Assembly: GCA_050178385.1 (NCBI GenBank)
Contig: JBFXGD010000033.1
Coordinates: 1-27,409, forward strand
DNA from: Calditrichaceae bacterium
Lineage (GTDB): Bacteria; Calditrichota; Calditrichia; Calditrichales; JBFXGD01
Reading direction: 5' to 3'
Length of the DNA: 27,409 nt
This document shows positions 1-27,409 of the stretch, piece by piece (positions within the stretch are counted from its first letter, which is position 1; each line of letters begins with the position of its first letter). The notes beneath the pieces are model-generated. The model was given only the letters and a program-made list of their open reading frames with translations, was not told the DNA's origin and did no database searches. A program made the position numbers and the translations under genes.

Positions 1-3000
1 GATATATCTTTTCGGAAATCCCCTTCAATGTCATAAACAGATTGAAGATTATATGAAGGATTGTCAGGTAATAATTGATCGATAAACCATAGACGCGTCT
101 GAGAGAATGAGAGCGACATTTGATCGGTCCTGAGAACCCGGGTTATTGACTGATAATGTTTGGAAGATCCCGTCATATCAATTGTTTTCGCCAGACTTTG
201 GATAACAGGATTCTCAAAAATAGTCCTGAGCGGAATCTCGATACCAAATTCATCCCGGATCCCGGAAATCAGTCTTGTGGCGAGAAGGGAGTGCCCTCCC
301 AGGTTAAAGAAATCATCATTCGCGCCTGTTTTATCCACCCCTAAAATATCTGAGTATATTTCCGCCAGCTTTTTCTCTGAGTCACTTCGGGGCTGAATAA
401 ATTCGCGTCCTGAACCCATGGCGGATTCATCAGGTTCGGGCAGCGCGCCGCGGTCAATTTTGCCGTTTGGTGTTTTGGGAAACTCATCCACCCAGACAAA
501 AAGGTTTGGGAGCATGTATTCCGGCAACTTCTGTTTTAAAAATTCTCTCAGATCCGGTACCGATGGTTTACTACTGTTTTCGGTTATCATATATGCCGCG
601 ATTCGTTTGTCGCCGGTCACTCTTTCCCTGACGACGACTACAGCATCTTTAACGGCGGAATGGGAGACGATATTGTTTTCAATCTCACCAAGCTCTATCC
701 TGAATCCTCTTACTTTTACCTGATGATCAATTCTTCCGAGAAATTCAATGCTGGCGTCGTTTCTGTAACGGACCAAGTCGCCCGTTTTATACATGCGCGA
801 GCCGGGCTCAACCGAAAACGGGTCCGGTAAAAATTTCTCACCGGACAACGCGGGTCTCGCGAGATACCCTCTTGCCAGACCTTCCCCGCCGATATACAAC
901 TCTCCGACGGCACCAACCGGAACCGGCCGGCAGTTTTCGTCAAGTATGTAAAATCTTGCGTTCACGATAGGTTTTCCTATGGTGGGACGCGAATTAAATG
1001 ATCTGACGGGACAAATGGTTGAATCGACTGTGCATTCCGTAGGACCATACATATTGTATGTTGCCGTTGAGGGTAACCCCGCCAGCATATTCCATGTCGA
1101 TTCGTCGATTGCTTCACCACCCGGAAGTAGCGCGGAGGGCACCCATTCAGGATCATTGAGGAGCCCGGCTGAGATTAATAACTTAAGTTGCGATGGAACA
1201 CAGTCGAGCAGGTCAACCCGGTGTTTTTTCAAATAAGATACCATTAATTTGCCTTCACCGCGCACCTCATCAGGAATGATGATCAGGCTGTGCCCTTTAA
1301 ACATCATGACCAGCTGCTGAACAGAGGCGTCAAAGGAGATTGGCGCGTTCAGGCTTATGTTCAGACGCTCTTCGCCCAAGGGCTCATAAATTGACTTTTC
1401 GAGATTTTTCATCAGGTTTACTGCCGAACGGTGTTGAATCATAACCCCTTTTGGCAGTCCGGTTGTACCTGAAGTGTAAATGATGTAAGCGAGATTTGCC
1501 GGATTCATATTAATCTCAGGATTTTGGCTTTCTTTGACCTGATTATTTTCAGGAATTTCATCAGTATTGATGATTAGAATGTTTTCATCCTTAAGCTTCT
1601 CTGAAAATTGTTCGTTTGTGATCAAAATTTTCGAGCCCGAATCTTTGAGCATAAACGCGATACGTTCTTCCGGATATGATGGATCCAGCGGCAAATAGGC
1701 GCCGCCCGATTTAAGGATTCCCAGAATGCTGATGATCATTTCCGGTGAGCGTTCCATACAGAAGGCTATGATACTCTCCGGTCCCGCGCCCAGCTTTTGC
1801 AGTCGATACGCCAGCCGGTTAGCCTTCGAATTCAATTCATCAAAGGTCATCTTGCTCTCACCTGAAATAACCGCGTATTGATCCGGATGCGCGTCAGCGG
1901 ATTTTTCAAAAATCCGGTGCAGACATAAATTCATCGGAAAATCAACGGTATGACTGTTCCATTCCTGTGTAAGGGTTTTAATTTCAGATCCTGACAGAAC
2001 AGGCAGTGTTGAAATATTCTGATTTGGATTTTGCAGAAATGCGTTCAGTAATACCTGAAAATGGTTTAGCATACGTTTGATGGTATCCGGAAGGAAAAGA
2101 TCCGTATCAAATTCAAACGAAACGGATAAATGGCCGGCGGATTCAGCGGCTGTGAACGACAGATCAAACTTAGCGCTGTCACTTTCAATCGGGATGGACT
2201 TCATGTTTAATCCGGGAAGTTCCATGCTGACAGATGTTTCGTTCTGGTAAGTGAACATCACCTGGAAGAGCGGGGTATGATTCATACTTCGTTCGGGATG
2301 AAGCTCTTCAACGAGCATTTCAAACGGCAGATCCTGGTGATTAAAAGCCCCCATGACCGCGCTTTTAACTTTTTGCACCAAATCTCTGCCGGTATCCGAT
2401 TTTGATATGGATGCCCGGATGACAAGTGTGTTGACAAAAAATCCGATTAAATTTTCTGTTTCAGCCCTGTTGCGATTTGCTATGGGGGTACCGACCGTTA
2501 TATCCGTCTGATTTGTGTAACGGTACATAAGCAGATAAAACACGGTCAGCAGCGAAATATAGGGCGTAATGCTGTTTTCGGCGGAGAATTTTTTTACCCT
2601 GTTTAATATATCCGGATTCAGCATGATTTCCTGACGGGATCCGTTATATGTTTTTATTGCAGGTCTTGCAAAATCCGTCGGAAACTGCAATACAGGCACA
2701 TGATCTCCTAAGACGGATTTCCAGTAATGGAGCAACTTACCCCGGTCTTTTCCATCGAGACGATCGCGCTGCCATTTGGCAAAATCTGCATACTGAATGC
2801 TCAGTTCAGGGAGATTACATGGTTTTTCTTCGACGAAATGTTTATAGTATTCTGAAAATTCTTTTAAAAATATTCCGATGGACCAGCCGTCCGCAATGAT
2901 ATGATGCATCACAAAAAACAGGACATAATCTGACTCAGAGAGCCGGAAAAGGGATATTCTACAGAGAGGTCCTTTGTTTAGATCAAACGGAATCCTGCTT

Positions 3001-3398
3001 TCTTCAGTTATTTTTTTCATTAGCACAGATTCTTTTTTGGCGGCCGGATACCGGCTAAGATCTGCAATCGTCAAATTTTCACCTGAGTCATTTGAAATTA
3101 CCTGCATCGGTGTGCCGTTAACAGTGGTGAAAGTGGTGCGCAATATTTCATGCCTGGTGATGATTGAATCGATGCTTTTTTCAAGCGCTTTTAAATCCGG
3201 TTTGCCTTTCAATCTCAGAGCCGCGGGAATGTTATACGCACTGCTGCGGGGCTCGAACTGATAAAGAAACCAGAGACGCTGCTGCGAGTAGGAAAGGGGA
3301 AAAGCATTCGAAAGGACGGACTTTTCCTTTAATTTTAACTCCAGAAGCTTCCGCTTTTCAGGCGATAGCGATTCAATCAATTTAGAAAGGTCAGCCAT
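1..3398 (-). CDS. NRPS C-A-T-C..., 3'-partial (>1132 aa); module 6 Gln-like; absent from the supplied ORF track because it has no stop in the window
   Basis: Hand translation from ATG 3396-3398: MADLSKLIESLSPEKRKLLELKLKEKSVLSNAFPLSYSQQRLWFL...MHHIIADGWS (~2880-2909)...YTSGTTGLPKG...FDASVQQ...NMYGPTECTVD...FFNLGGHSLL (~282-311)...LSFSQTRLWFIDQL (start of the next C)...DFRKDI at the edge in the same frame. It overlaps the upstream stop by 8 bp (ATGGCTGA). Confidence 0.95.
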   Translation of the reverse strand, partial: MADLSKLIESLSPEKRKLLELKLKEKSVLSNAFPLSYSQQRLWFLYQFEPRSSAYNIPAALRLKGKPDLKALEKSIDSIITRHEILRTTFTTVNGTPMQVISNDSGENLTIADLSRYPAAKKESVLMKKITEESRIPFDLNKGPLCRISLFRLSESDYVLFFVMHHIIADGWSIGIFLKEFSEYYKHFVEEKPCNLPELSIQYADFAKWQRDRLDGKDRGKLLHYWKSVLGDHVPVLQFPTDFARPAIKTYNGSRQEIMLNPDILNRVKKFSAENSITPYISLLTVFYLLMYRYTNQTDITVGTPIANRNRAETENLIGFFVNTLVIRASISKSDTGRDLVQKVKSAVMGAFNHQDLPFEMLVEELHPERSMNHTPLFQVMFTYQNETSVSMELPGLNMKSIPIESDSAKFDLSFTAAESAGHLSVSFEFDTDLFLPDTIKRMLNHFQVLLNAFLQNPNQNISTLPVLSGSEIKTLTQEWNSHTVDFPMNLCLHRIFEKSADAHPDQYAVISGESKMTFDELNSKANRLAYRLQKLGAGPESIIAFCMERSPEMIISILGILKSGGAYLPLDPSYPEERIAFMLKDSGSKILITNEQFSEKLKDENILIINTDEIPENNQVKESQNPEINMNPANLAYIIYTSGTTGLPKGVMIQHRSAVNLMKNLEKSIYEPLGEERLNISLNAPISFDASVQQLVMMFKGHSLIIIPDEVRGEGKLMVSYLKKHRVDLLDCVPSQLKLLISAGLLNDPEWVPSALLPGGEAIDESTWNMLAGLPSTATYNMYGPTECTVDSTICPVRSFNSRPTIGKPIVNARFYILDENCRPVPVGAVGELYIGGEGLARGYLARPALSGEKFLPDPFSVEPGSRMYKTGDLVRYRNDASIEFLGRIDHQVKVRGFRIELGEIENNIVSHSAVKDAVVVVRERVTGDKRIAAYMITENSSKPSVPDLREFLKQKLPEYMLPNLFVWVDEFPKTPNGKIDRGALPEPDESAMGSGREFIQPRSDSEKKLAEIYSDILGVDKTGANDDFFNLGGHSLLATRLISGIRDEFGIEIPLRTIFENPVIQSLAKTIDMTGSSKHYQSITRVLRTDQMSLSFSQTRLWFIDQLLPDNPSYNLQSVYDIEGDFRKDI

Positions 3399-6300
3399 TC
3401 CTTGTCATATCCCGTTTATTGGATTTTAACTTTTGATTTAACATTGTTTTTGTTTCATCTTCCGACAATTTATCTATGCTTAAAAGCAATGCTTCGAGAT
3501 CTTCCCCATCCCGGTCAGCGCGTTGTATTTTAACCGGTTCCCCGTTTCCATCTGTTGCGGCTATTTTGATAATTTCCCTGGAAAGCTCTGCTACTGTGGG
3601 TTTTTCAAACAACAGGCTCAATGGCAGATCGGCTGAAAATCGCTCCCGGATTTGAGACATGAACTGAGTGGCGAGCAGGGAATGACCGCCAAGTTCGAAA
3701 AAATTATCGTGAATGCCGGTTTTGTCTAAATTCAGGAGTTCTGTGACAATCACGGATAGTTTTTCTTCGGTTTCATTGGTCGGCGCGGTGTACACAGACC
3801 GCAGGCTCTCACGAGAAAATTCCGGTTCAGGCAATGCTTTCCGGTCGATTTTTCCGTTTGGAGTGAGCGGCATCGCGTCGAGCATGACAAAAGATGAGGG
3901 AATCATGTATCCGGGCAACCGTTCATTCAATTGTGATTTCAATTCAGATACATCAGGTTCATGCCCATTCACGGTCACAATGTATGCAACCAGTCGTTTG
4001 TCGCCGGGTAAATCTTCACGTACCATTACGAATGTTTCATGTACGTCATCAAATTCATCAATAATGGCCTCAATTTCTCCCGGCTCGATGCGGAATCCCC
4101 TTATTTTTACCTGTTGATCGATACGGCCAAGAAACTCTATATTTCCGTCCGGCAGATATCTGACAAGATCACCGCTCTTATAAAGTCTGCTGCCCGGCGA
4201 CTCGCTAAAGGAATCCGGGATAAATTTTTCAGCGGTCAGTCCGGGTCTGTTCAGATAACCTCTTGCCAGACCGACACCGCCAATATGTAATTCTCCCGCC
4301 GTGCCCGTTGGTACAGGTTGAAGCGACTTGTCCAGTATGTAAAGACGGAAATTGTCAATAGGCCTTCCAATGGGAGGCACGAGGCCCGCTTCCGGATCAA
4401 CCTGATACATGGAGGCGCAAACAGTTGTCTCTGTGGGGCCGTAGGCGTTAAAAAATGATCTTCCTTCCGACCAGCGACGCGCCAGATCAATGGTGCATTT
4501 TTCACCCGCGGTTATTATCGTCATAAGATCAGGAAGCGGTTCATCCGGCAAAACAGCCAGCACGGAAGGCGGCAGGGTCACGGTGGTGATTTTTTCATTT
4601 TTGAGGATGTCATAAAGATTTTGTCCGGCAAGCAGTTCGTCCTTGCCGGCAAGACAGAGCGTACCCCCGTTCAGCAGCGCCATAACGATCTCCCAGACCG
4701 ATGCGTCAAAGCTGAGTGACGCAAACTGAAGTATTCTGCTGCCCTGACGAATGCCAAAGGCCTTTTTTTGAGCATTTGCAAGATTTAAAAGTCCCCTGTG
4801 AGGCAGTAATGTACCTTTCGGACGACCTGTTGAACCCGATGTATATATGACATAGGCCAGATTTTCAGGAGTCAGCTTACTCTCAGGATTCTTTTCCGAA
4901 CCGGATGAAAATATTTCAGTTTCCTTATCCAGAAGAATCATGTGAACATCTGTTTCAGGTAAATTGGCCAGTATCGCTTCATGAGTTATAAGCGCTGAGA
5001 TACCCGAATCTTTGATCATATATTCAATCCGGTCTTTTGGATAAACAGGATCAATCGGAAGAAAGGAGCCGCCAGCCTTTAAAATTGCCATTACCGAAAC
5101 GGGGATATCCATCGAGCGGGGCAGGCAAATTCCGGTAATTTTATCCGCGCCAATTCCATGTTTTATAAGCATACGCGCCAGTTGATTGGCTTTCTCATTC
5201 AATTTTTTGTACGTCAGAGATTGATTCTCCTGGGTTACAGCAACCGTATCCGGAAACTCTTCCGCTAACTGTTCAAACCATTGATGGACGGTCGCGCTGT
5301 CAGGATAGTCAGCTTTTATGTCATTCCATCCGGAAAGAATCAACTTAAGCTCATCTTTACCAATGATGCCTAATTCAGAAACTCGTTTATCGGGATTGCT
5401 GATAATTTCAATTAAAATATTTTCAAAATGATTCTGCATCCTTAGAATGGTGGCAGGATCAAAAAGATCGGTGTTGAATTCAAAATAACAATCCATTCCA
5501 TCCGTGGCTTTCGCTATTGTCAGAGTGAGATCGTATTTTGCTGTCAGGTTTTCAGTCTCGATCGGTGTGATTTTAAATTCGGGCATCTCAGCCATTTCAA
5601 ACGGAGCGTTCTGTAACACAAAAGCAACCTGAAACAGGGGAGAATGGCTCATGTTCCGCTCAGGCTGGAGTGCCTCGACGAGATATTCAAATGGTAAATC
5701 CTGATGCATAAACGCGTTCAGGGTTGTATCACGTACCTGTTTCAAAAGCTGCTTAAAGGTGGGCATATCCCAAAATTCTGCTTTCAATACCAATGTGTTC
5801 ACAAAAAATCCGATAAGATTTTCCATTTCGGAACGTGTACGGCCGGCAATTGGCGATCCCACTAAAATTTCATCCTGCCCTGTGTACCGGTGCAAAAGTG
5901 TCTGATATGCCGCCAAAAGCGTCATAAAGAGTGTGGTTCCTTCTTTCCGGCTGAGCTGGAGTAAATCATCGGATAGGCCGCCCGAAAGATGCTGCTTTAT
6001 CGTCCGCCCGTTAAAAGTTTGTGTGGCGGGACGCGGATGATCGGCAGGCAGTTCCAACACCGGTGGGTTTGTTCCTATTTTATTTTTCCAGTATTCAATT
6101 TCCTTTTTAAGTTTCTCGCCCTGCAGCCAGTTTCGCTGCCAGATAGAAAAATCGGCATACTGAATCGGCAGCGCATCAAGCGGTGATTCCTTCTTTTCTT
6201 TAAAAGCCTTATACAGTGAAGCAAATTCATTAAGAAGTACACCAATTGACCAGCCGTCAGCGATAATATGATGAATGGTTATCAGGAGTATATGATCGTC

Positions 6301-9300
6301 AGATTTTAATTTGATTATTTTTGCTCTTAACAATGGTCCTGATTCCAGATTGAAAGATTGACGAGCATCCTCAGCAGTGATTTTCTGACTTTTAAGATGC
6401 TTTTCATCATCCGGAATTCCGCTCAGGTCTAAATTTTCGATTTTTATCTTCAGTTCGGGCAAAATGACCTGATGCGGATGACCTTTCTCGCTTTTAAAAA
6501 CGGTTCTCAGAATCTCGTGTCTGACAATGATTTGATTCAGGCAGCGTTCAAAAATCCCGAGATCGATATGTCCATGAAGATGAAGCGCGGATGGGATGTT
6601 ATAATACGCATTTCCGGGCGCCAACTGATCCAGAAACCATAATCTTTGCTGTGAAAAAGAAAGTGGTGTTTCTGCATCTCTTTTTTCAGGCGCAAGAGCG
6701 GGGATATCCTGATCATTCCGGTCATCTCTGATATTTCCTATCTGCTTTGCAAGGGCAGCGATTGTGGGATTTGAGAAAAAATCGGGTAGTGAGATTTCAA
6801 CCGCGAAGATATCCCTGATTCTTGATGCCAGCCGGGTAGCAGTTAATGAATGTCCGCCCAGATCAAAAAAATTATCATGAATGCCAATTTTCTCGATACC
6901 TAAAATCTTGCTCCAAGCAGAGGTTAACAGTTCATCGACCTGATTCCCGGGTGCGGCATATTTATCATCACGAATCAAATCGGCCCCTTCTGGTACAGCC
7001 AGAGCTGCTCTGTCAATTTTTCCACTTGAAGAAACAGGGAACTGATTCATAGCTATATAATAGACCGGTATCATATATTCCGGCAGATGTTCCTTTAGGT
7101 AGCATTTTAATGATTCAGCGTCAGGATTTTTCTCAAATTCAGGCATGTAATAAGCGATCAGCGCTTTTTCACCGGGTGTTTTTTCGAATACCGTGACGAC
7201 AACTTTTTTAAGATCTTTATGGTTGGAGAGTACGGATTCGATCTCACCCGGTTCGATTCGGAATCCGCGAATTTTAACCTGATCGTCAATCCTGCCTATA
7301 AACGCCAGATTTCCGTCACCGATGGATCGAACAATGTCACCGCTTCTGTATAGTCTCGAGCCGGGTTGATCCGAAAACGGATCGGGTATAAATTTTTCAG
7401 CTGTTAATCCGGGATTATTTAAATATCCGCGCGCGATTCCCGGACTGCTTATACATAACTCTCCCGGAACTCCCTGCGGCTGAGGATAGAACTGTTCATT
7501 GAGTGTGTATGCCCGCACATTATCAATTGGTTTTCCAATGGGAATATTGTCAGTAAACGATAAATCCTCATGGATGGGAAAAACCGTCGCGCAAACCGTC
7601 ACCTCCGTAGGCCCGTATCCATTGACGAAATTTCGTCCGATCCTCCAGCGGGACGCGGTATCCCGGGTACATGGTTCGCCGACCGAGCCAACCACATCGA
7701 GATCCGGCAAATCTTTTTCTGATAAAATTGCCAGCAGGGATGGCGGGGCGACAAAAGTAGTCACTTTTTGATCTCTTAATAATCCGGTTAGTCTTTCTTC
7801 AGAGAGCAATGTGTCCCGGTCAGACATAATGAGACATCCTCCCTCTAAAAGTGTGCTGAATATTTCCACAACGGATGCATCGAATGAAATAGACGCGAGC
7901 TGAAAGAAGGATTTGCCGGCGGAAATATGAAAAACCTTTGCCAGAGCCAATGATGTGTTTACAGCTCCAAGATGCCGCAACAAAGTGCCTTTTGGCCGTC
8001 CGGTGGAGCCGGAAGTATAAATGATATATGCAAGATTTTCTGAAGACGCGGCACATTCAGGATTTTTATCTGATTCACCGGAAATAAGATCATCGGAGAT
8101 TTTAATATCAATAACCCGCAATTTGCCGGACGGCAGCTTTTGTTTCAGGCCGTTTTCAGAAAGAATAAGACCGACACCGGAATCTTCCAGAATATACTTC
8201 AGGCGTTCATCAGGCGTGGACGGATCGATCGGCAGATACGCGCCGCCTGCTTTCAGAACCGCAAGAACGCTGATAATCATCTCCGGCGAGCGATTGAGAT
8301 ATACCGCAACCAGATATTCAGGACCAACACCTTCTCTTTTTAATATTGCAGCCAGCTGATTTGCCCGTTTGTTCAAATCTGAATATGTTAAAATTGTATC
8401 ATCGAACCGCACAGCATGATAATCAGGATGCGCCTTTGCCTGCTCTTCGAATATCTCATGCAGGCATCTGTTCGCGGGAAAATCGGTTTGTGTTTTATTC
8501 CAGGACCTGACGATTGTTTCTATTTCGGTATTTGTCAGCAGCTTAATTGCTGAGACGGTTTGCTCCGGTTCAATTACCATGGAAGCCATTATCACTTCCA
8601 GATGTCCCAGCATCCGGTTTATTGTTTCGGCATCGAATCGATCCGTCTGATAGGCGATTTCCAGAACAATATCTTCATGCGCGGATCCAACCACCGTCAG
8701 GGGATAGTTGGTCTGCTCTATGGCGTTAATGTCAAATATCCTGATCTTATTATCAAAATCATTTAATGAAGAGCTGACCGGATAATTTTCGAATACCACG
8801 ATGCTTTCAAATAACGGTAAATTGCCCTTTATTCCGCTCAGTTTTTGAACTTCTGCCAGGGCACTGAACTCAAACTGTCGCATTCCGGCGGACTGCTGAT
8901 GAATCTCTTTCAAAAAGGTCATCATCTTTTGTCCGGGCGATACCCTGATTCTCATGGGAAGCGTATTTATAAAAAGGCCGATCATGGATTCGACTCCGTC
9001 CAGTTCCGGCGGGCGGCCTGAAACAGTGACGCCAAAAATAACATCCTTCTCGCCGCTGTATCTGCTTAAAAGGACCGACCAGGCAGCCTGGATCAGAGTA
9101 CTGATTGTAAAGTGATTACTTCTTGTAAAGCTACTGATGTTTTCAGATAAGGAAGACGATAAGCGTCTCATGGATTTTTCGTATCCACCGGTTTTAGCAT
9201 GCCCGCCGGCAGGAAGATCGACGGTTAATGGAGTCGGCGCCGTAACATCACTCAGCTTTTCCTTCCAATATTCTTCCGCGGTTCGGACATCCTGCTGATT

Positions 9301-17796: not shown

Positions 17797-17801
17797 GGTC
17801 T

Positions 17802-17809
17802 ATTCCTTC
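17802..17809 (-). promoter_or_regulatory. Probable ribosome-binding site GAAGGAAT for the 2645-aa NRPS (TTG start)
   Basis: Minus strand reads CCGAAGGAATAGACC-TTG; identical octamer and 5-nt spacing to the site at 21213-21220. Confidence 0.65.
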
Positions 17810-17829
17810 GGTATAAAATTTAAATCGAT

Positions 17830-20800
17830 TTATTCTCCGGAATTGATGATTTTCTGAACTTCTTCTTCTGACAAACCTTCCAGTTCAGACAGTATGTTTT
17901 CCAGTTCTTCTTGATCTTCACCTAGAGATTGTGATTCTGTAATAACCCGCATCATACCATCGACTGTAGGATTTTCAAATACAGACCGTAATGGAATTTC
18001 CACATTAAAAGACTCACGTAATCGTGAAATGAATTGTGTTGCGAGCATGGAATGTCCACCCAGCTCGAAAAAATTGTCATAAACTCCTATTTTATCAATT
18101 TTTAACAATTGACCGGCTATTGCCGCTATCTTTTTCTCGGTCGGTGTCCGGGGTATTACAAATGCAGATTCCAGGTCCGGGCGCAGATTTTCCGGGACCG
18201 GAAGCGCGCCGCGGTCAATCTTACCGGCAGGTGATAAAGGAAACTGATCTACCCTTATAAAGGCCGACGGGATCATATAATCAGGCAGACGCTTATGAAT
18301 TGCGCCACGAAGTTCTGTGACCGGCAGGTCCTGATTTCTTTCTGTGATATAGTAGGCGATTAGTCTTTTAGTGCCTGGAGAGTCTTCTCTGGCGGTTACA
18401 ATGCTGCGGGATACGCCGCTACACTGATTGAGGGCGGCTTCAATTTCACCGAGTTCTATGCGAAATGCTCTTATTTTAACCTGATTATCCACGCGGCCTA
18501 AAAATTCGATATTTCCGTCAGATAGATATCTTGCAAGATCACCTGTTTTATAAAGAAGACTACCGTTCTCTTTGCCGAAAGGATTTTTGATAAATTTTTC
18601 AGCCGTCAGTTCATGCTGATTCAGGTAGCCCACGGCCAGAGCGCTGCCTCCGATATGCAATTCCCCGGGGATACCGACCGGTACAGGATAAAGATTACTA
18701 TCCAGGATATAAAATTCTCTGTTTGCCCTGGGTCGGCCAATAGAAATGTTGGTACCCCTGAAGTCCCGCGGGATTTCATAAGTTGATGCGGTTATCGTAG
18801 TTTCCGTGGGGCCGTATGCATTAAGCAGCCGTATATCGCTTAACGAAGTCTTTCGCCATAATTCTAAAGTATCGCCTGACATGCGGTCACCGCCGATAAT
18901 CACCAGCCGTAATCGGTTCTTTGGAAGCCATTCCGGATGGGAAGACCAGTCCAGCGCCAGCTGTTGCCAGTATGCTGTCGGCAGATTGATGACGCTTAGA
19001 TCAAATTTCTCGATCTTCTTATGAAAATCAATAGTCGGCCAGATTTCGTCATCTCTCAGGACAAGTCTTGCTCCGCTGATCAATGTTGGCAGAATCTGCT
19101 CCACCGACGCGTCAAAATTAAATGAAGCAAACTGGAGTATGTGGTCATCCGGCTTGATTTCATAATGGTCTATCATGTCACAGCAATGATTCGCTATGGC
19201 CTGATGAGATATAAGGACGCCTTTTGGAGTTCCGGTCGATCCTGATGTGTATATAATATATGCTGGCGGGTCGTTTGTCACTTTAATATCGGGATTCCCG
19301 TCGTTCTCCTGGCTTATTTCAGGCCAAAGTGTGTCGAGACAGATTAGCTCCGCGTTGGAAGACGGGAAATTTTTAGCGATTTGCTCCTGAGTCAGCACAA
19401 ATTTCGCCGCTGAGTCTTCAAGCATAAAACGAATTCTCTCTTCGGGATAGCCCGGATCGAGAGGAAGATAAGTGCCGCCGGCTTTTAAGATTCCCAATAT
19501 TCCGATGATCAATTCAGGAACGCGGTTGACTGATAAACCTACAAAAGTGCCGGGAAGTACATCGTTTCGTATCAGATAGCGCGCTAAACGGTTTGAACGT
19601 GTGTTCAGTTCTTCAAAACTCAGCTCTTTTTTATCCGCAACCAGCGCGACAGCGGAAGGGGATTTCTCAACCTGCTCTTCAAATAATTTATGAACAAATT
19701 TTCCGCAGTCATACCATGATTCCGGTTTGTTGAGAATGGTTGTAATATGCGTAAACTCTTCGCCGGTCAGCATGCGAAGATCGGATATCTTTGAAAGGGG
19801 ACTGATAATTATCGAGTCAATAAGAACTTTAAAATGACCGATAAGCCGTTCCATGGTGTCTCGGTTAAAAAGATCGGTATTATATTCCAGCTTTCCCTGC
19901 AGAATGTTTTCTGTTTCAGTCAGATTCATGATAATGTCAAATTTGGAAGTTCTGCTTTCTATATCAATCAATGAAATTTCCAGATCTGGCAGTGTTATGG
20001 CGTTCTCGGTGGTGTTGTTGTAAACAAACATTACCTGAAACAGAGGCGAATGATTCAGCGCTCGGTTTGGATTAACCGCCTCCACCATCATTTCAAACGG
20101 TAAATCCTGATTAGCATAAGCGTCAAGAATTGTTTTTTTCATTCTCTCAAGGAAAAATGAAAATGCCGGGTTCCCGGAAAGGTCACCGCGCATAACCAGC
20201 GTATTTACAAAAAAACCTATAAGTCCTGCAACTTCGGCCCGGTTTCTGTTCGCGATAGGTGAACCGACACAGATATCGTTTTGACCGGTATATCTGTGAA
20301 GCAGTACCTGAAACACCGAAAGGATGGTCATAAACATTGTGGCATCCTGTTTCAGACTGAAATCTTCAAGTTTTTGCACTTTTTCTTTTTCGATGTTGAA
20401 AATAATATGATCACCCCGGTATGTGCGCGAAGCCGGTCTGGGGCGGTCTGTTGGTATTTCAATTAATGGAGGAATGTCTTTTAGCTGATTTTTCCAGTAG
20501 GTGATTTGCTTGTCAAGCACGTTTCCCCTGAACCATTTTCGCTGCCAGATCGCGTAATCAGCATATTGAACGGGCAATTCCGGCAATGTTATAGATTTGT
20601 TCAGACAATAGGCCGGATATAATTCTTTGATTTCACTAATGATCACACCCATGGACCAGCCGTCGGAAACGATATGATGAATCGTTAAAACCACAATCGT
20701 TTCATCCTTGCTTAGATTTAGAAATGACGCGCGGATCAGCGGCGTGGTCTGGAGGTCAAAGGGTTTTTCCGTTTGGGATATAATGATCTCATTTAGTTGG

Positions 20801-21207
20801 GAATCGAGTTCTTGTTTATCGAGTCCGGACAGATCAACTTCGGGGATTTTAATATCCATTTCCGCTGAAATTACCTGAGCGGGCGATCCATCAATCGCGA
20901 TAAAGGCAGTTCTTAGAACAGAGTGCCTTTTTATAATCGTGTTTATGCTTTTGTTAAATGCCTCTTTGTTAAAATTTCCCTTAATTTTCACCGCTGCGGG
21001 AATACTGTACAAGGAATTTCCCGGTTCAAGCTGATCCAGAAACCAAAGTCTTTGCTGGGCGAATGAAACGGGGATATGGTTATCTTTCGGCTTTTGAGGC
21101 AATATGGCGATTTCTGAAAGATCGATTCCTTCATCAATCAGCATTAATTCGAAGAGTTCTCTTTTTTCCGGTGATAATGCGGAAATTTGGTCAAAGAGAC
21201 TGCTCAT
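17830..21207 (-). CDS. Single-module NRPS C-A-T (1125 aa); module 1, probably a basic amino acid (Arg/Lys)
   Basis: C motif HHIVSDGWS; A motifs YTSGSTGTPKG, NAYGPTE, YKTGDL, GKIDR; T motif FFELGGHSML; hand-read pocket DAENIGAITK; ATG start with upstream GAAGGAA. Confidence 0.96.
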   Translation of the reverse strand: MSSLFDQISALSPEKRELFELMLIDEGIDLSEIAILPQKPKDNHIPVSFAQQRLWFLDQLEPGNSLYSIPAAVKIKGNFNKEAFNKSINTIIKRHSVLRTAFIAIDGSPAQVISAEMDIKIPEVDLSGLDKQELDSQLNEIIISQTEKPFDLQTTPLIRASFLNLSKDETIVVLTIHHIVSDGWSMGVIISEIKELYPAYCLNKSITLPELPVQYADYAIWQRKWFRGNVLDKQITYWKNQLKDIPPLIEIPTDRPRPASRTYRGDHIIFNIEKEKVQKLEDFSLKQDATMFMTILSVFQVLLHRYTGQNDICVGSPIANRNRAEVAGLIGFFVNTLVMRGDLSGNPAFSFFLERMKKTILDAYANQDLPFEMMVEAVNPNRALNHSPLFQVMFVYNNTTENAITLPDLEISLIDIESRTSKFDIIMNLTETENILQGKLEYNTDLFNRDTMERLIGHFKVLIDSIIISPLSKISDLRMLTGEEFTHITTILNKPESWYDCGKFVHKLFEEQVEKSPSAVALVADKKELSFEELNTRSNRLARYLIRNDVLPGTFVGLSVNRVPELIIGILGILKAGGTYLPLDPGYPEERIRFMLEDSAAKFVLTQEQIAKNFPSSNAELICLDTLWPEISQENDGNPDIKVTNDPPAYIIYTSGSTGTPKGVLISHQAIANHCCDMIDHYEIKPDDHILQFASFNFDASVEQILPTLISGARLVLRDDEIWPTIDFHKKIEKFDLSVINLPTAYWQQLALDWSSHPEWLPKNRLRLVIIGGDRMSGDTLELWRKTSLSDIRLLNAYGPTETTITASTYEIPRDFRGTNISIGRPRANREFYILDSNLYPVPVGIPGELHIGGSALAVGYLNQHELTAEKFIKNPFGKENGSLLYKTGDLARYLSDGNIEFLGRVDNQVKIRAFRIELGEIEAALNQCSGVSRSIVTAREDSPGTKRLIAYYITERNQDLPVTELRGAIHKRLPDYMIPSAFIRVDQFPLSPAGKIDRGALPVPENLRPDLESAFVIPRTPTEKKIAAIAGQLLKIDKIGVYDNFFELGGHSMLATQFISRLRESFNVEIPLRSVFENPTVDGMMRVITESQSLGEDQEELENILSELEGLSEEEVQKIINSGE

Positions 21208-21212
21208 TCACA

Positions 21213-21220
21213 ATTCCTTC
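21213..21220 (-). promoter_or_regulatory. Probable ribosome-binding site GAAGGAAT for the 1125-aa NRPS
   Basis: Minus strand reads CAGGAAGGAATTGTGA-ATG; the same octamer precedes the next gene at the same spacing. Confidence 0.65.
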
Positions 21221-21246
21221 CTGATCTTTCATTAAAAGATTTAATA

Positions 21247-24200
21247 TCAATCATTTTTTCTTGCCTTCAGCATATCCGCAGCTTGCTGGTCAGAAATTTT
21301 TTCAATTTGAGCGAGTACGCTTGCCATTTTATCGATTTTATGTGTAGCCTTATTTTTTTCACGGTCAATTATTTCTGCAATCCCTGAAATGGTAGGGTCA
21401 GTGAATAAACTCTGAAAGGGTAATTCAACATGGAATTTTTCACGCACCTGCGCGATAAGCTGGGTTCCGAGAAGTGAGTTACCGCCCAGATCAAAAAAAT
21501 CATCGCGCACGCCGATGGGGTAGATGCCCAATAAATTTTGCCAGGAAGAGACGATCTGTTCTTCCAGTTCTGTTTTTGGCGGAATATAATTCGTTGGCAG
21601 TTCGGGTCTCGAATAGTTTAAATTCCCGGATTTTCGCTCAGATTTTTGAATCAATTTTGATTCGGGGACTTCGGCTGAAACGGCAATCCGGCTTATTCCA
21701 CGAAGAGCAAGAATTCTCATGATGGCGTCCGCAGCGATATCGCTATTTAGGCCGCTTCCTGATTTTGTCTCAGAGCTACGGATTAGCCGGCTGTCCCAGT
21801 TGACGCTTATCCATTGAGTTTGACCTTTACGGTTTTCAAGGCTGGAAAAATTGTCAATATAATGAGCCATCGCCGAATATGCCGCAAACCCGGATTTTAC
21901 ATTAAGAGTAGACAGGGATGAGTGTAAAATACAAAAATCTGACCCATTTTCTACTGTCAGTTTCGTGAGTTTTTTAAAGCTTGCATCCAGATTTTTGATA
22001 GGATTGGTTATGTTTTCAGGGTTGCCATTCGAAATAAAATCCAATAGCGCGGAATCAGAATCAATGTCCGCGAAGATGAATCCGCGAATCGGACCCATAC
22101 TTTTAATACCGGCGTCATAGTCTTTGAAATTGTATAGATTCCCGGTGAAAATTTTAACTCTGTTGACTCTTTTTTCAATTTTTCTGATCTGTCTGATATG
22201 CAGACTGATCTCATTTTTGCTGTCATGAGATTCCAGCCATAAATCCCAGTTTTCTTTGGCGGGAAAAGAATCTGTGAGTAAGATCAGCTTTATTTTCGCT
22301 GATTTACTAAGTTCTTCGGCAAGTAAAAGCGCCGATTTATCAAATCTCCCCGAGATCAAATAAGTTGCATCCTCGCGCAATAACAATTCTTTTTTATCCG
22401 GAACATCCAGCTGAATCGCATCATTATGCCTGGTCCAGCGGTGATGGCCCCGGTAAGCGATAAACCGGTCTGAATTTTGCCCGGAAAATTCGCTGAGAAT
22501 TTGCTCTGAATATTTTCGAGTGAATCCGTTACTGTATTCAACATGATCAAGATCAATCAGGCGAAGACTGATGCCCGGGTTATCTTCAGGTAAAGTAACA
22601 CTTAACCCGGCGAGAGCCGCTTGAGCGGCATCAATTATTTCAGAACCGGTGACGTCAAACATTCCCTGTGTAATGACTCCAATACGCGGTAATTCTGAAA
22701 AACCCATCGTTTTTAATACCCTTGACAGATAAACAAGGCCCTTGATGTGGTCATCTCCACTCAAAAACTCCTTGTTTTGCTTGTCTGATACAATCCCGGG
22801 ACGGCTCATGCTGTATAAAATGAAACCGGGATTGAGGTTATTGTCAGACAAATAATTGAACAGTTGCCGGTGATCATCTTCGAATGACAGGTTCATAAAA
22901 ATGGAGTTTTTATCAGCCACTTCAAAATTATTACCATCATGAACTGTGATAACGTTTGCGGTGTACTCACGGAGTTGATCAGTAAGTTGTTTTGTTAAAG
23001 GATCATGATGCCCGAAGATCAGACAAACGCTATCTTTAAATGCTGAAATCAGCCGGATTTTTCTGACCGGAAGATCGCTCTGTTTCCAAACGGGAATATA
23101 GAACCGGCCTGATGTATCGGTAAGACTTTTTCCATTGGAATCATTTGTGGCTGGTGATGCCTGTTGTTCGATCCAATAACGTTGTCTTTCGAATGGATAT
23201 GTGGGCAGTGATATCTTGTTTCTAAGCTCATTACGGTAAAACGCGCCCCAGTTGATTTCTTTTCCGGCCAGCCAGATTTGTCCGATGAGCCGGTAGATGG
23301 ATAAAGTCGTGGATTCTTCATTTTCGGCTTCGGTTATAATTGACAGCATCCTGTTTTTTAGTCCGGAAGGCCGCGTCTCTGGAAAATTAACGGCAAAACT
23401 GACGATATTTGGTTCCTGCGGTTGATCTGATAAAGATCTCAGGATATCGCTTGGTTGGACGGACTCTGTAAGCAGCTTGAGATAATATTCAGGATCTGTT
23501 GCCTTATCAGGTGTAATAAAATCTCCGCTGACAGAAGAAATATATCTGATTGAAGGTTTTTTTAAAGTGATGCTGGAGATAAAATCTTTGAGACTGCCTG
23601 ATAAATCTGACGGAATCTCATCCGCCACGTTCCTGACAATTGAAGTTTCAGCGTGTCTTATGACCAGATTCATGCTGTCTTCAAGAGCAATGACGCCGGC
23701 AAGATGGGCGCATAGATATTCACCGGAATCAGTTCCTGCCATCATCTCGGGCATGATGCCGAAGTCAATCAACAGACGCGCGAAAGCATACTGAGTGATA
23801 AATGATATTAGATAAGAAATTGATTCTTGTTCAAGTTTTACTTCAGATTTGCTCTGTATGTCAATTTTGTTAAACAGAAGATCCGAAATCGGTAAATCCG
23901 ATTTGTCCTTCAATAATTCACAGCAGTGATCCACATATTTTCTGAATTCGGGGATGTCTTCATATAATTTTTCTGACAATCCGCCGCCTGCAAATGTTCT
24001 TCCTTCAAATAAAAAGGCTATTCCCGTCTGAACCGGGATTCTTTTATGAGAGACGGTGGGGATATTTTCAGCGCCATTATTATTCAACGCATCCAGCAGT
24101 TCCTGATAGGTCCGATACACAATTATTCTTCGGTGATTAAAAGGTTTTCTTCCGGTGTTTAATGTATAATCAAAGTCGGACAAATTTGTATCCGGATATT

Positions 24201-27200
24201 TTATGAGGAATACAGCGAGATTAGACGAAATTTTATCAAGAGCTGTCATGCTTTTTGCTGAAAGAGTGAGCAGATGATATTTGTGTTCAGAAGGATCGGA
24301 TAATGTCTCCGGAGCTTTTTCAATAATAACGTGGGCATTGGTACCGCCGATACCGAAGGAACTAACCCCCGCAAGTCTTTTGGCATTATTCATGGGCCAT
24401 TGCCGGCCGCTGATGGTAAAAGTTATCGGGTTTTCACCTGATTTGATCTGTGGATTTAAATTGTTCAGATGAAGGTGTTTTGGAATATAACCGTTATTCA
24501 GAGCCAAAATTGTTTTAAGAAAACCTGAGATTCCCGAAGCGGCTTCAAGATGTCCGATATTTGTCTTAACCGATCCCACGATCAGGGGGTTGGATGAATC
24601 ACGTTCAACCGTCAACACCTTCTTTATCGCCTCTATCTCAATGGGATCGCCATAGGCGGTACCCGTAGAGTGAGACTCCAGATAATCAATATCATTTGGC
24701 AAAACTCCCGCGTCCTCGAGCGCGAGCTGCAGCACTTCCTGCTGGGCAAGACCTTTTGGAGCGGTGATACCGTTGCTCCGGCCATCCTGGTTAACCGCGG
24801 ATCCCCTGATTATGGCGTGAATTGGATCATGATCGCGAATGGCATCGGATAGCCTTTTTAATAAAACAACCCCGCATCCTTCACCCCGCACATATCCGTC
24901 AGCGCTTTCATCAAATGACCTGCAGCGGCCCGACGCGGAGAGCATTCGCGCTTGTGATAAGGTGACGGATACTTCGGGAGAGAGGATGAGATTGACACCT
25001 CCCGCAATGAACATACCTGAATCGCCTTGTCTCAGGTTCCTGCAGGCATTGTGGATGGCCGTCAGAGAAGATGAGCAGGCCGTATCAACAGAGAGGCTGG
25101 GGCCTCTAAGGTCAAATGTATATGAGATACGATTGGCTGCGAGACTCAGAGCGTTTCCCGTACCCGAATAACTGCTGATGTCGTTAAGATTTTTGTTGTT
25201 AAGCCTTGAATAGTCGTTGGTGCTTATGCCGATATAAACACCTGTATTGCTTCCGGCAATTAAATCAGCGTTTATACCCGCGGATTCAAAGGCTTCCCAT
25301 GTGGTTTCAAGCAACAACCTTTGCTGTGGGTCCATATGAATGGCTTCTTTAGGAGATATCCCAAAAAAATGCGCGTCAAACTGATCTACTCCGCTGATAA
25401 ATCCGCCATATTTTGTGATCATTTTTCCCGGTGTGCCGGGATTCGGATCATAATAATCATCAGCCGGCCAACGGTCTGCCGGAATTTCGGTAATGGCATC
25501 AATCCCTTCTTTAAGAATTTTCCAGAATTCTTCAGGATTATTCGCGCCCGGCATTCTTAAACCATAACCGATCACAGCGATGGGTTCATTTTTTATCTCT
25601 GCCGGCTTTTTCTTTCGATGGAGGAAAATCGGGATTTCACCTTCACTGGCGAGATAGGCGGCTAGCGATCCAATATCGGGGTAATCCCAGATCAGTGTAG
25701 GGGAGAGGGAGCGTTTTAACCATACTTCAAGATCGCCCACCAGACCGACCGCCTGAGCGGAATCCAGACCGTAACCGGCAAAAGGTTTTGACGGATCGAT
25801 TTCCGCGGTATTTATCTCCAACGCTTCGGCCAGACGCGTCGTAAGCCATTCTTCTATCCGGAGGGCATTTTCACTTTTTTGCAAAGAGTGACCGGAAGCA
25901 TGTTCTATATCCCGAATATCTTCGGCATTTTTGTGTGGTTCGGTTTCAACAGATTTTGTGACGAGCTTTAAAAGCCCGTTTTCATATTCATTTTTGCAGG
26001 CGTGTCTCTGTATTTTACCGCTTGATGTTTTTGGAATGGTTCTTGGTTTGATGAGCGCGATTGAATGCGTCTGAATGTCAAAAGTCTCATTAATGATCAG
26101 ACGAATGGCATCGGTAATTTGTTTGACGTTTATATTTTTTGTGTGACGAACTTCAACCACAACAATAAGGCGCTCGGAACTGTCCACATCGATTGAAAAA
26201 GCAGCGGAACATCCGGGTCGGATCTCGGGATGGCTGTTTTCTATAAGATATTCAATATCCTGCGGATAATAGTTTCTCCCCCTGATAATGATCAGATCCT
26301 TAACTCTGCCTGTTACATATAAATTGCCCTTATCGAGAAAACCAAGATCTCCTGTTCTTAGAAACGGGCCTTCTCCCGAACCGGAGATATGGGCATGGAA
26401 CGTTTTTTCTGTCTCTTCAGAGCGATTCCAGTATCCCTGCGCCACATTCACGCCTTTTATCCAGATTTCACCGATCTGCATATCACCGCATACATCAAAT
26501 GATTCGGGATTGACAATCGCGATTTTTTGACCGGAAGGTGTCATGCCGCAGCTGACCAGGGGCATAGCATCCGGTGATTCTTTCTCTGTCAGAATTACTT
26601 TGTTTGCGCCCAGGCCATTTTTATCAAGAATGGTGACGACAGGTTCAGTTTTAAACGCGTTACCGGTTACGAAGAGGGTTGCCTCTGCAAGCCCATAACA
26701 GGGAAGAAAGCTGTCTTTTCTGAATCCCGCGATTTTAAATGTCTCTGTAAAACGTTCAATCGTTTGCTGCCGGACCGGCTCAGCGCCCGTAAACGCGACA
26801 TCCCAATGGCTAAGATCCAGCCCCATCAATTGTTCGGGAGTTATTTTTTTGACACATAAATCATACGCGAAATTCGGCCCGCCGCTAATGATTGATTTAT
26901 CTTTAATCTTTGAAATCGCCTGCAGCCAGCGAATGGGCTGTTGAAGAAAATGTATGGGCGAAATCAATGTGACGGGCGCATTGCCGAAGAGCGGTTGAAG
27001 AATACCTCCTATCAGACCCATGTCATGATAAATAGGCAGCCAGATGACTCCATGTGAATTTTTTGAATAACCAAAGCCCTCATAAATCTGGGCGGAATTG
27101 TCAAGAAGATTTTTATGAGACAGCATGACCCCTTTTGGGATGCCTGTAGATCCGGAAGTGTATTGCAGAAATGCCAGAGTGTCTTCTGAAATCCCGGGAT

Positions 27201-27409
27201 CATCCCAATTGTCCGCCTGGCCACCCAATATATCATCCGTGGAAATCCATTGTAAATTGCCAAGTTCATTTGCCTCAGCGATGCCGGTACTCTTTGTCGA
27301 GAAAAAATCCATTGTAGTGCGGAATTTTCTCAGAAAGGGTACCTTATCCAGGGATTCAGTAAATTTATTCCCGAGTTTTAGAATACGGATCATGTGCAGG
27401 ATTGTATTG
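21247..27409 (-). CDS. Hybrid lipo-initiation/type I PKS protein FAAL-ACP-KS-AT(degenerate)-KR(degenerate)-ACP; 5'-partial (>2048 aa)
   Basis: The frame stays open upstream of the Met at 27393 to the window edge (...NTILHMIRIL), and the FAAL N-terminus is missing, so 27393 is probably not the true start. FAAL motifs FLQYTSGSTGIPKG, WLPIYHDMGLIG, CYGLAEATL, FLRTGDLG, PKTSSGKIQR. ACP GLDS. KS DTACSSSL / HSTGT / KTNIGHLEAASG. Post-AT linker LPTYPFERQRYWIE. Terminal carrier FFDLGGNSL. Stop TGA at 21247-21249. Confidence 0.95.
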   Translation of the reverse strand, partial: NTILHMIRILKLGNKFTESLDKVPFLRKFRTTMDFFSTKSTGIAEANELGNLQWISTDDILGGQADNWDDPGISEDTLAFLQYTSGSTGIPKGVMLSHKNLLDNSAQIYEGFGYSKNSHGVIWLPIYHDMGLIGGILQPLFGNAPVTLISPIHFLQQPIRWLQAISKIKDKSIISGGPNFAYDLCVKKITPEQLMGLDLSHWDVAFTGAEPVRQQTIERFTETFKIAGFRKDSFLPCYGLAEATLFVTGNAFKTEPVVTILDKNGLGANKVILTEKESPDAMPLVSCGMTPSGQKIAIVNPESFDVCGDMQIGEIWIKGVNVAQGYWNRSEETEKTFHAHISGSGEGPFLRTGDLGFLDKGNLYVTGRVKDLIIIRGRNYYPQDIEYLIENSHPEIRPGCSAAFSIDVDSSERLIVVVEVRHTKNINVKQITDAIRLIINETFDIQTHSIALIKPRTIPKTSSGKIQRHACKNEYENGLLKLVTKSVETEPHKNAEDIRDIEHASGHSLQKSENALRIEEWLTTRLAEALEINTAEIDPSKPFAGYGLDSAQAVGLVGDLEVWLKRSLSPTLIWDYPDIGSLAAYLASEGEIPIFLHRKKKPAEIKNEPIAVIGYGLRMPGANNPEEFWKILKEGIDAITEIPADRWPADDYYDPNPGTPGKMITKYGGFISGVDQFDAHFFGISPKEAIHMDPQQRLLLETTWEAFESAGINADLIAGSNTGVYIGISTNDYSRLNNKNLNDISSYSGTGNALSLAANRISYTFDLRGPSLSVDTACSSSLTAIHNACRNLRQGDSGMFIAGGVNLILSPEVSVTLSQARMLSASGRCRSFDESADGYVRGEGCGVVLLKRLSDAIRDHDPIHAIIRGSAVNQDGRSNGITAPKGLAQQEVLQLALEDAGVLPNDIDYLESHSTGTAYGDPIEIEAIKKVLTVERDSSNPLIVGSVKTNIGHLEAASGISGFLKTILALNNGYIPKHLHLNNLNPQIKSGENPITFTISGRQWPMNNAKRLAGVSSFGIGGTNAHVIIEKAPETLSDPSEHKYHLLTLSAKSMTALDKISSNLAVFLIKYPDTNLSDFDYTLNTGRKPFNHRRIIVYRTYQELLDALNNNGAENIPTVSHKRIPVQTGIAFLFEGRTFAGGGLSEKLYEDIPEFRKYVDHCCELLKDKSDLPISDLLFNKIDIQSKSEVKLEQESISYLISFITQYAFARLLIDFGIMPEMMAGTDSGEYLCAHLAGVIALEDSMNLVIRHAETSIVRNVADEIPSDLSGSLKDFISSITLKKPSIRYISSVSGDFITPDKATDPEYYLKLLTESVQPSDILRSLSDQPQEPNIVSFAVNFPETRPSGLKNRMLSIITEAENEESTTLSIYRLIGQIWLAGKEINWGAFYRNELRNKISLPTYPFERQRYWIEQQASPATNDSNGKSLTDTSGRFYIPVWKQSDLPVRKIRLISAFKDSVCLIFGHHDPLTKQLTDQLREYTANVITVHDGNNFEVADKNSIFMNLSFEDDHRQLFNYLSDNNLNPGFILYSMSRPGIVSDKQNKEFLSGDDHIKGLVYLSRVLKTMGFSELPRIGVITQGMFDVTGSEIIDAAQAALAGLSVTLPEDNPGISLRLIDLDHVEYSNGFTRKYSEQILSEFSGQNSDRFIAYRGHHRWTRHNDAIQLDVPDKKELLLREDATYLISGRFDKSALLLAEELSKSAKIKLILLTDSFPAKENWDLWLESHDSKNEISLHIRQIRKIEKRVNRVKIFTGNLYNFKDYDAGIKSMGPIRGFIFADIDSDSALLDFISNGNPENITNPIKNLDASFKKLTKLTVENGSDFCILHSSLSTLNVKSGFAAYSAMAHYIDNFSSLENRKGQTQWISVNWDSRLIRSSETKSGSGLNSDIAADAIMRILALRGISRIAVSAEVPESKLIQKSERKSGNLNYSRPELPTNYIPPKTELEEQIVSSWQNLLGIYPIGVRDDFFDLGGNSLLGTQLIAQVREKFHVELPFQSLFTDPTISGIAEIIDREKNKATHKIDKMASVLAQIEKISDQQAADMLKARKND
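21700..23110 (-). other. Degenerate ketoreductase (structural plus catalytic subdomains; approximate bounds)
   Basis: YLISGRFDKSAL in place of YLITGGxGxxG; GFIFAD in place of GVxHAAG; SSLS...GFAAYSAMAHYID; WISVNWD. Confidence 0.8.
23330..24015 (-). other. Degenerate acyltransferase domain (approximate bounds)
   Basis: FLFEGRT in place of FxFxGQG; GTDSGEY in place of GHSxGEY; no HAFH/YASH motif; a large internal segment is missing. Confidence 0.85.
24320..25590 (-). other. Ketosynthase domain with Cys-His-His triad present (approximate bounds)
   Basis: EPIAVIG, MDPQQRLLLE, DTACSSSL (Cys 25075-25077), ESHSTGT (His 24670-24672), NIGHLEAASG, GVSSFGIGGTNAHVII. Confidence 0.93.
25650..25860 (-). 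other. Loading ACP (approximate bounds)
   Basis: FAGYGLDSAQAV, with the phosphopantetheine Ser codon at 25759-25761, and the C-terminal SPTLIWDYP motif. Confidence 0.9.
25960..27409 (-). other. Fatty acyl-AMP ligase (FAAL) domain, N-terminally truncated by the window (approximate bounds)
   Basis: Adenylate-forming motifs plus the FAAL-type insertion between CYGLAEATLFVTG and LVSCG (~26550-26670); immediately followed by an ACP. Confidence 0.9.

Follow-up and report, generated by a model that had tools for sequence, protein, structure and literature searches.

In the iturin and mycosubtilin family, lipopeptide assembly starts at FAAL-ACP-KS, an aminotransferase follows the KS, and seven amino-acid modules are present. 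A line of this general type, a hybrid of a polyketide synthase (PKS) with a nonribosomal peptide synthetase (NRPS), primed by a fatty acyl-AMP ligase (FAAL), is encoded in part on contig JBFXGD010000033.1 (C33; 27,409 nucleotides) of a Calditrichaceae bacterium (assembly GCA_050178385.1; host genome G000, 3.89 Mb, 94% complete). The entire contig was analyzed and is referred to as the window; G001 is a second genome of the same genus (97% complete). As in iturin and mycosubtilin, a FAAL-ACP-KS start leads into NRPS modules, with epimerases and a terminal thioesterase (TE), but the line has 12 modules instead of 7 and no aminotransferase, hence no beta-amino fatty acid is expected. The lack of an aminotransferase after the KS had been claimed when the DNA was interpreted from its letters only (the sequence-only reading), and indeed gene 1 gave no such Pfam match and its G001 orthologue leaves no room for one.

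FAAL lipoinitiation in the iturin/mycosubtilin family is covered in the available text of PMC11837247, as is the cyanobacterial olefin synthase (OLS), which consists of FAAL-ACP-KS-AT-KR-ACP plus a sulfotransferase-thioesterase (ST-TE). Gene 1 of the window shares the FAAL-ACP-KS-AT-KR-ACP order, but its AT and KR, active in OLS, are dead, NRPS genes follow in place of ST-TE, and the order arose by deletion in a different ancestor. For locillomycin (LocD-LocC, Bacillus subtilis), the available part of PMC8949500 reports that the acyl chain bypasses the KS without being extended. Both locillomycin and the window have an acyl-ligase-primed hybrid start, and for the window, too, a plain fatty acyl group on the first residue is predicted; in locillomycin, however, the start is acyl ligase-T-KS without AT or KR, the line passes over the KS and later T domains, and three of its six NRPS modules are used twice, whereas the window has a KS-AT-KR-ACP module with degenerate AT and KR and a conserved KS, 12 collinear modules, other residues and a host from another phylum. 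Finally, the accessible text of PMC13096860 describes FabD as trans-AT for barnesin, a lipopeptide of the anaerobe Sulfurospirillum, and that of PMC12828459 does likewise for pseudotetraivprolide. Like the window, those lines have a PKS module that lacks a functional AT, and their clusters encode no trans-AT, but their modules extend an amino acid and keep their reducing domains, whereas the module in the window precedes the peptide and its KR is dead.

The window encodes part of an uncharacterized FAAL-primed PKS-NRPS lipopeptide line. Its parts are textbook and its PKS-NRPS type is known; the line is of unusual interest because it is conserved vertically across an order and because the collapse of its PKS module can be traced. 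The sequence-only reading did not recognize the architecture from a characterized cluster, and searches of protein and plasmid records (MIBiG not covered) listed no named pathway at high identity; among the best 120 of 7,980 candidates, the degenerate AT-KR region was confined to the two proteins from this genus, all others being at most 31% identical. No literature describing the cluster or its product was found in a search that covered neither subscription papers nor supplements, in which tables of biosynthetic gene clusters may list it. The main text of the Caldithrix abyssi genome paper (PMC5317091) contains 0 occurrences of six NRPS/PKS terms. In the available portions of other papers, Calditrichota NRPS or hybrid clusters are mentioned in passing as held or expressed (PMC13635244, PMC13476314, PMC7960500), the phylum is named only for rhamnolipid genes (PMC13040851), or it is not named (PMC12820801).

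Five collinear minus-strand open reading frames (ORFs) fill the window, the first three intergenic distances being 39, 33 and 0 bp and the final pair overlapping by 8 bp, and the contig is open at both ends; ORF coordinates bear out the tight packing first noted. Pfam and NCBIfam searches returned the domain order that had been proposed (FAAL-ACP-KS-AT-KR-ACP / CAT / CATCATE / CATCAT / CAT-C), with weak scores for AT and KR. The usual start in relatives is longer: FAAL-ACP-KS-AT-DH-ER-(KR)-ACP-C-A-T (PKS1), then KS-AT-KR-ACP (PKS2). In gene 1 the FAAL, ACP1 and KS resemble PKS1 of the relatives (KS thirds, 47–76%, versus 40–50% to PKS2), while ACP2 and the tail after it resemble PKS2 (46–54% versus 29–37%), as do the linker, AT and KR. 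The crossover lies at the KS C-terminus, at residues ~1008–1048, around a conserved block that the two KS types share. By these affinities gene 1 is a chimera in which the first KS is fused to a PKS2 tail, and the fusion is most simply read as a deletion, since G051 and G052, which lie outside the order, carry the long form.

Alignment confirmed that AT and KR are degenerate. In both G000 and G001 the AT has lost the catalytic Ser, the Arg and ~65 residues that include the His, and the NADPH-binding glycines are gone from the KR; these motifs are retained in 22/22 other AT and 17/17 other KR domains aligned, some KRs having a variant form. The Cys, His and His of the KS are all retained. Between G000 and G001 (dS about 0.6–1.0), dN/dS was 0.069 for FAAL, 0.080 for KS, 0.116 for ACP2, 0.243 for the dead AT, 0.375 for the structural part of KR and 0.163 for the degenerate KR, compared with 0.02–0.16 across the C, A, T and TE domains measured. 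Of four clear shared departures of the KS from invariant columns, three lie next to the catalytic Cys or a catalytic His. After the fusion AT and KR lost their active sites while the KS stayed conserved. In cis the module can neither load nor reduce, although its KS is under the same degree of constraint as the FAAL. AlphaFold modeling of the KS and AT remnant from a 5-sequence alignment was too weak to use (mean pLDDT 49, KS unmodelled, AT blocks mostly 50–94). The window is a traceable record of the deletion and a test case for what a KS does once its module cannot load itself, whether relay, extension with FabD in trans, or nothing because it is skipped.

The distribution of the line was surveyed in an order that is likely Calditrichales, with E at most 1e-100 as the threshold for FAAL orthologues. 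An orthologue was present in 31/39 genomes of the order (host included) and in 5/47 elsewhere in the phylum; the best named KS matches were Calditrichaceae bacterium records at 89% (L055) and 63% (L056). The FAALs of the phylum formed one clade against 9 outside FAALs (support 0.94), and in the printed parts of the tree C domains mostly clustered by position in the line. Single-marker FastTree trees of FAAL-ACP-KS and RpoB were compared for 34 genomes, kin among which are not independent, with G023 (no RpoB match) and two KS-less FAAL proteins left out: 20/31 splits were common to both (shuffled mean 0.22, maximum 5; Mantel r 0.79), and 17/22 well-supported RpoB splits recurred in the FAAL-ACP-KS tree. 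Wherever both flanks were assembled, the cluster (~50–70 kb) occupied one chromosomal site. The pattern is that of a line descending vertically, with losses. A mobile copy was considered and rejected: the best match among plasmid records was 52%, with no sign of one.

The remainder of the line was found on other contigs of the host. C190 overlaps the end of the window (126 bases exact, 94% over 363) and supplies the FAAL start; the differences, mostly three bases apart, are such as a second strain would show. C194, which holds the rest of module 7 (A predicted Asn, T, E), overlaps the window start at 99.3%, and C124 overlaps C194 at 99.5%. Modules 8–12, TE, a major facilitator superfamily (MFS) exporter, a type II thioesterase (TEII) and a phosphopantetheinyl transferase (PPTase) fall on C124 and C42. 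C42 (E-C-A-T-TE, MFS exporter, TEII, PPTase) does not overlap C124 and was placed by synteny with G001, in which all seven genes lie on a single contig at ~83–88% identity. G001 fixes the number of modules at 12, with epimerases after modules 3, 7 and 11, that is, after every fourth module; the third epimerase is ~40–45% identical to the others. TE, TEII, PPTase and MFS are intact in the host line. The sequence-only reading had counted at least seven NRPS modules; the window itself holds 6 complete modules and the beginning of a 7th C domain, so the lower bound stands for the line. Its proposed check of the flanks for release, export and PPTase genes thus turned up TE, MFS, TEII and PPTase on linked or synteny-placed contigs, but no dedicated trans-AT was found within the cluster; the only other AT found in G000 was FabD, in the fatty-acid operon.

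The module 3 epimerase had been called dead, which is probably not real. The His-to-Gln change at 10876–10878 is confined to the host assembly, and the G001 orthologue has an intact motif. One contig of run X3 (depth 4.7, possibly an error) has the His codon together with a neighboring residue in the G001 state; run X1 does not reach the site. The C domain that follows the epimerase belongs to the D-acceptor clade. The change is probably an assembly or strain artefact and the epimerase is probably active. Three other single sites in the window (9831, 15073 and 26302) are contradicted by two sequencing runs and are likely assembly errors. X1 agrees with the window over 22225–27409 but for one base, and may be the source sample, hence not independent. 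No RNA run was among the sequencing runs listed as carrying the stretch.

For the PKS module, we lean towards a reading in which the KS hands a fatty acyl chain on, without extending it, for attachment to a 12-residue peptide whose residues 3, 7 and 11 are D-configured; we give this reading slightly better than even chances. The FAAL would load a fatty acid onto ACP1 and the intact KS would move the acyl chain, unextended, from ACP1 to ACP2; 12 NRPS modules would then add the predicted residues, the thioesterase would release the product by cyclization or hydrolysis, and the MFS protein would likely export the lipopeptide. Extension appears to have been abandoned and the KS kept as a relay because AT and KR decayed together, and the chain likely still passes through the PKS module because the downstream docking tail sits on ACP2. 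A plain acyl start is viable because genome G078 has a PKS-free FAAL-ACP-C-A-T, and locillomycin offers a precedent for a chain left unextended. The two-carbon extension queried in the sequence-only reading is probably absent. Several points count against this reading. Non-elongating KS domains usually lose the first His, and both His residues are kept here. The KS departures number 5–6, merely reaching the top of the control range (0–5), and the dN/dS of the degenerate KR (0.16) lies within the E-domain range (0.15–0.21), with its Tyr kept. The module form is known from two genomes only; modules 11–12 of G000 cross an unassembled gap of ~498 residues that is bridged solely by G001; the FAAL-KS tree contradicts three of the well-supported RpoB splits; and the product is not essential, since at least four members of the order lack any C domain. 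FabD, moreover, has been reported to act in trans in barnesin and pseudotetraivprolide.

The last point leads to the strongest alternative, possible but less probable, in which FabD loads malonyl on ACP2 in trans, the KS adds two carbons and the dead KR leaves a 3-oxoacyl peptide, so that a cis-AT module would be turning into a trans-AT one. The complete KS triad and its low dN/dS would fit, as would the presence of FabD in G000, the two reported precedents (in the available texts of PMC13096860 and PMC12828459) and the form of the AT remnant, which comprises the large subdomain only, like a docking scaffold (structure prediction weak); but the joint decay of KR with AT is left unexplained, the cluster has no dedicated trans-AT, and a PKS-free version exists in G078. 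Less plausible still, at roughly one chance in ten by our estimate, ACP1 passes its acyl chain straight on to the first C domain and the KS with the AT and KR remnants is a dimerizing scaffold. Locillomycin (PMC8949500, available part) is a precedent and the G078 architecture would suit it, but the KS is conserved as much as the FAAL, ACP2 keeps its serine at low dN/dS, and the C-terminal tail is the one that in relatives ends PKS2 and precedes this NRPS gene. A decaying cluster that yields no product in this lineage is very improbable: AT and KR are dead, the AraC gene and sulfotransferases are lost and one E motif in the window is changed, but all frames are open in two species at the dS given above, the measured C, A, T and TE domains are constrained, and TE, TEII, PPTase and MFS are intact.

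The predicted residues provide a mass-spectrometry target. Pocket positions were set by gapless alignment to gramicidin PheA. In modules 5 and 9, nine of the ten pocket positions are those of PheA. For module 1, Arg or Lys is predicted because it is nearest to ApnA A1 among solved structures and has an acidic residue in its pocket; ApnA A1 specificity is taken to be Arg/Tyr, and modules 2 and 6 presumably select Gln. A code tabulated as predicted Asn in the available part of PMC3547906 is found in module 7 and, in full, in module 11 as read from G001, and the code of module 10 matches one assigned to ornithine in the available part of PMC3992020. Modules 3, 4, 8 and 12 were left as X, their nearest pockets being aromatic-type or likewise unassigned (47–57% identity). 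The predicted peptide is Arg/Lys-Gln-D-X-X-Phe-Gln-D-Asn-X-Phe-Orn-D-Asn-X, in agreement, by pocket codes and nearest solved structures, with the FAAL-primed N-acyl peptide and the basic-Gln-X-X-Phe-Gln order first proposed. In counts read by eye, the basic pocket of module 1 was identical in 16/17 clusters, and Orn then Asn started 12/12 last genes, some with one change; positions between varied widely.

The remainder of the long form in relatives comprises six NRPS genes, mostly with 14 amino-acid modules, MFS, TEII, PPTase and free sulfotransferases. By established logic, a statine-like unit results where KS-AT-KR comes after an amino-acid module, and the long form is predicted to make one. 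A sulfotransferase domain lies between T and C in 14/17 genomes with that gene retrieved and is missing in G000, G001 and G078, and no sulfotransferase or AraC gene remains at the host locus; the product here is predicted to be an unsulfated, exported lipopeptide. The Calditrichota long form and the window lineage share orthologous genes, the chromosomal site, a downstream MFS-TEII-PPTase-lipoprotein-sigma54-kinase flank, C domains that mostly correspond by position, and a set of conserved pockets (basic, Phe, Phe, Orn and Asn). In contrast to the long form, the window lineage has lost the reducing PKS tail, one amino-acid module with the second KS, the sulfotransferases both within the line and beside it, AraC and a terminal module, and has gained a third epimerase; the amino-acid module and the separate KS-AT-KR-ACP that make up the statine-like unit were removed by the fusion. 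The last gene here has three modules and an epimerase, versus four modules in relatives. The ancestor is predicted to have been a longer, sulfated, statine-like lipopeptide system common to most of the order. Loss of the sulfate donor is not a consistent correlate, because APS kinase, not found in G001 (97% complete), is still present in G000. PKS-free FAAL-ACP-C-A-T starts occur at G078:C6:44532-50081 (L140) and G030:C4:13342-18789 (L173). In G078 the same basic-residue pocket is present and the FAAL groups with a PKS-bearing member of its family; an independent, complete loss of the PKS is suggested because the C domain groups with that of PKS1 while the pocket is that of the basic module.

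Among the 8 FAAL-less members of the order, five (81–94% complete) were searched for condensation domains, with none in four and a weak partial match in one; the other three are 52–73% complete. Order-wide retention and a species-like tree nonetheless point to a conserved cellular role, and the chances that the product is an exported, surface-active amphiphile are put at about even. A metal-binding, siderophore-like lipopeptide is a doubtful alternative. Directly upstream, G000 and G001 have a DtxR-feoA-feoB operon for iron uptake (feoB in six further genomes), the FAAL comes after an AraC regulator in 27/36 retrieved stretches, and an Orn module was found in 12/12 last genes read; however, hydroxamate lipopeptide siderophores need an Orn/Lys N-hydroxylase, of which a full-length copy was absent in 5/5 genomes tested (partial flavoprotein matches only), no Asp-type pocket was seen among the codes read, no receptor, hydroxylase or aryl-acid gene was recognized beside the G000 cluster, and ppdK instead of feo adjoins the cluster in many relatives. 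Taken broadly, and tentatively, Calditrichota may have had a single lipopeptide system from around the time the class arose, its product a lineage-defining part of the cell surface, encoded in the core genome, in which the basic, Phe, Phe, Orn and Asn positions are fixed and those between them freely swapped, the cis-AT PKS of this genus having become a dedicated non-elongating relay that keeps its triad and feeds a 12-mer with a four-residue L-L-D-L repeat. The genomes would then form a series (extra PKS module, standard, vestigial, none) for testing PKS-module loss and adenylation-domain swapping.

Table 1. Features of the window and their coordinates
Feature	Coordinates	Strand	Remarks
Gene 1, 5'-open: FAAL-ACP1-KS-AT-KR-ACP2 (AT and KR degenerate)	21247..27409	-	ancestral PKS1 (FAAL-ACP-KS) and PKS2 (linker-AT-KR-ACP-tail) fused
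FAAL domain, C-terminal ~80%	25951..27408	-	domain calls; dN/dS 0.069
ACP1	25651..25848	-	serine motif intact
KS, PKS1 descent	24298..25587	-	Cys/His/His intact at 25066-25083, 24658-24672, 24544-24561; dN/dS 0.080
KS1-to-PKS2 fusion junction, approximate	24267..24390	-	ORF residues ~1008-1048
Dead AT	23209..24018	-	catalytic Ser motif altered (23719-23739); His-bearing small subdomain (~65 aa) deleted; dN/dS 0.24
Degenerate KR, PKS2 descent	21787..23031	-	structural and catalytic parts; NADPH-binding glycines gone (22330-22350); Tyr retained
ACP2, PKS2 descent	21367..21558	-	serine motif intact; PKS2 C-terminal tail after it
Gene 2, module 1: C-A-T	17830..21207	-	predicted Arg (or Lys)
Gene 3, modules 2-3: C-A(predicted Gln)-T-C-A(X)-T-E	9859..17796	-	TTG start
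T-C linker, 44 residues, deletion scar	14428..14556	-	relatives: ~365-residue stretch with sulfotransferase domain
Module 3 epimerase	9940..11259	-	His-to-Gln at 10876-10878
Gene 4, modules 4-5: C(D-acceptor clade)-A(X)-T-C-A(Phe)-T	3391..9858	-	domain calls, pocket codes
Gene 5, module 6 (predicted Gln) and module 7 beginning	3..3398	-	runs on into contig C194

The true start of gene 1 lies on C190, which holds ~140 FAAL residues, and translation does not begin at the ATG at 27393. An antisense ORF of 156 aa lies within gene 3 (window 14493-14963, plus strand), and nothing marks it as a gene. Downstream of the line, a conserved cassette (L004:8164-15449, G000:C42) encodes a lipoprotein, a GAF-sigma54 activator, a Ser/Thr kinase with a PEGA domain and a secreted protein; it was not accepted as belonging specifically to the cluster, its first three genes persisting in 4/5 cluster-less genomes.

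Further variation was seen among the relatives. A homologue labelled Calditrichota bacterium GD2 (P0144; 5.0-Mb contig, no metagenome-assembled genome tag) suggests that an isolate with the long form may exist, and a 3,991-aa protein labelled candidate division KSB1 (P0155) has the long PKS1 architecture at 51% identity, reflecting either a mislabel or reach into a neighboring phylum. An extra PKS module separates the FAAL gene from the first amino-acid module in G007:C1, G012:C1, G016, G017:C147, G023:C52 and G027:C88; PKS1 has no recognizable KR in the family-f3 genomes G003, G008, G010 and G022; and a choline/carnitine acyltransferase-family gene lies between PKS1 and PKS2 at G003:C1:1681884-1683737 and also in G026, G051 and G052. 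The sulfotransferase-bearing NRPS gene is present two to three times, with differing pockets, in the 16-module lines of G008:C5, G012:C1, G016:C11 and G023:C52, and the basic-residue NRPS at G003:C1:1672406-1677100 has an additional T-sulfotransferase tail. At G004:C3:101899-116070 and G007:C1:859217-873607 the last NRPS terminates in C-A-T-E and lacks a thioesterase. Between NRPS genes, G003:C1:1645743-1647716 encodes a secreted Ig/cadherin-domain protein that has a C-terminal sorting domain, and G012, G016 and G023 have genes that resemble it by N-terminal likeness only. At G051:C47:97190-110290 and G052:C49:8242-21330, ~330 residues interrupt the first A domain, and a similar 4,360-aa protein has methyltransferase Pfam matches.

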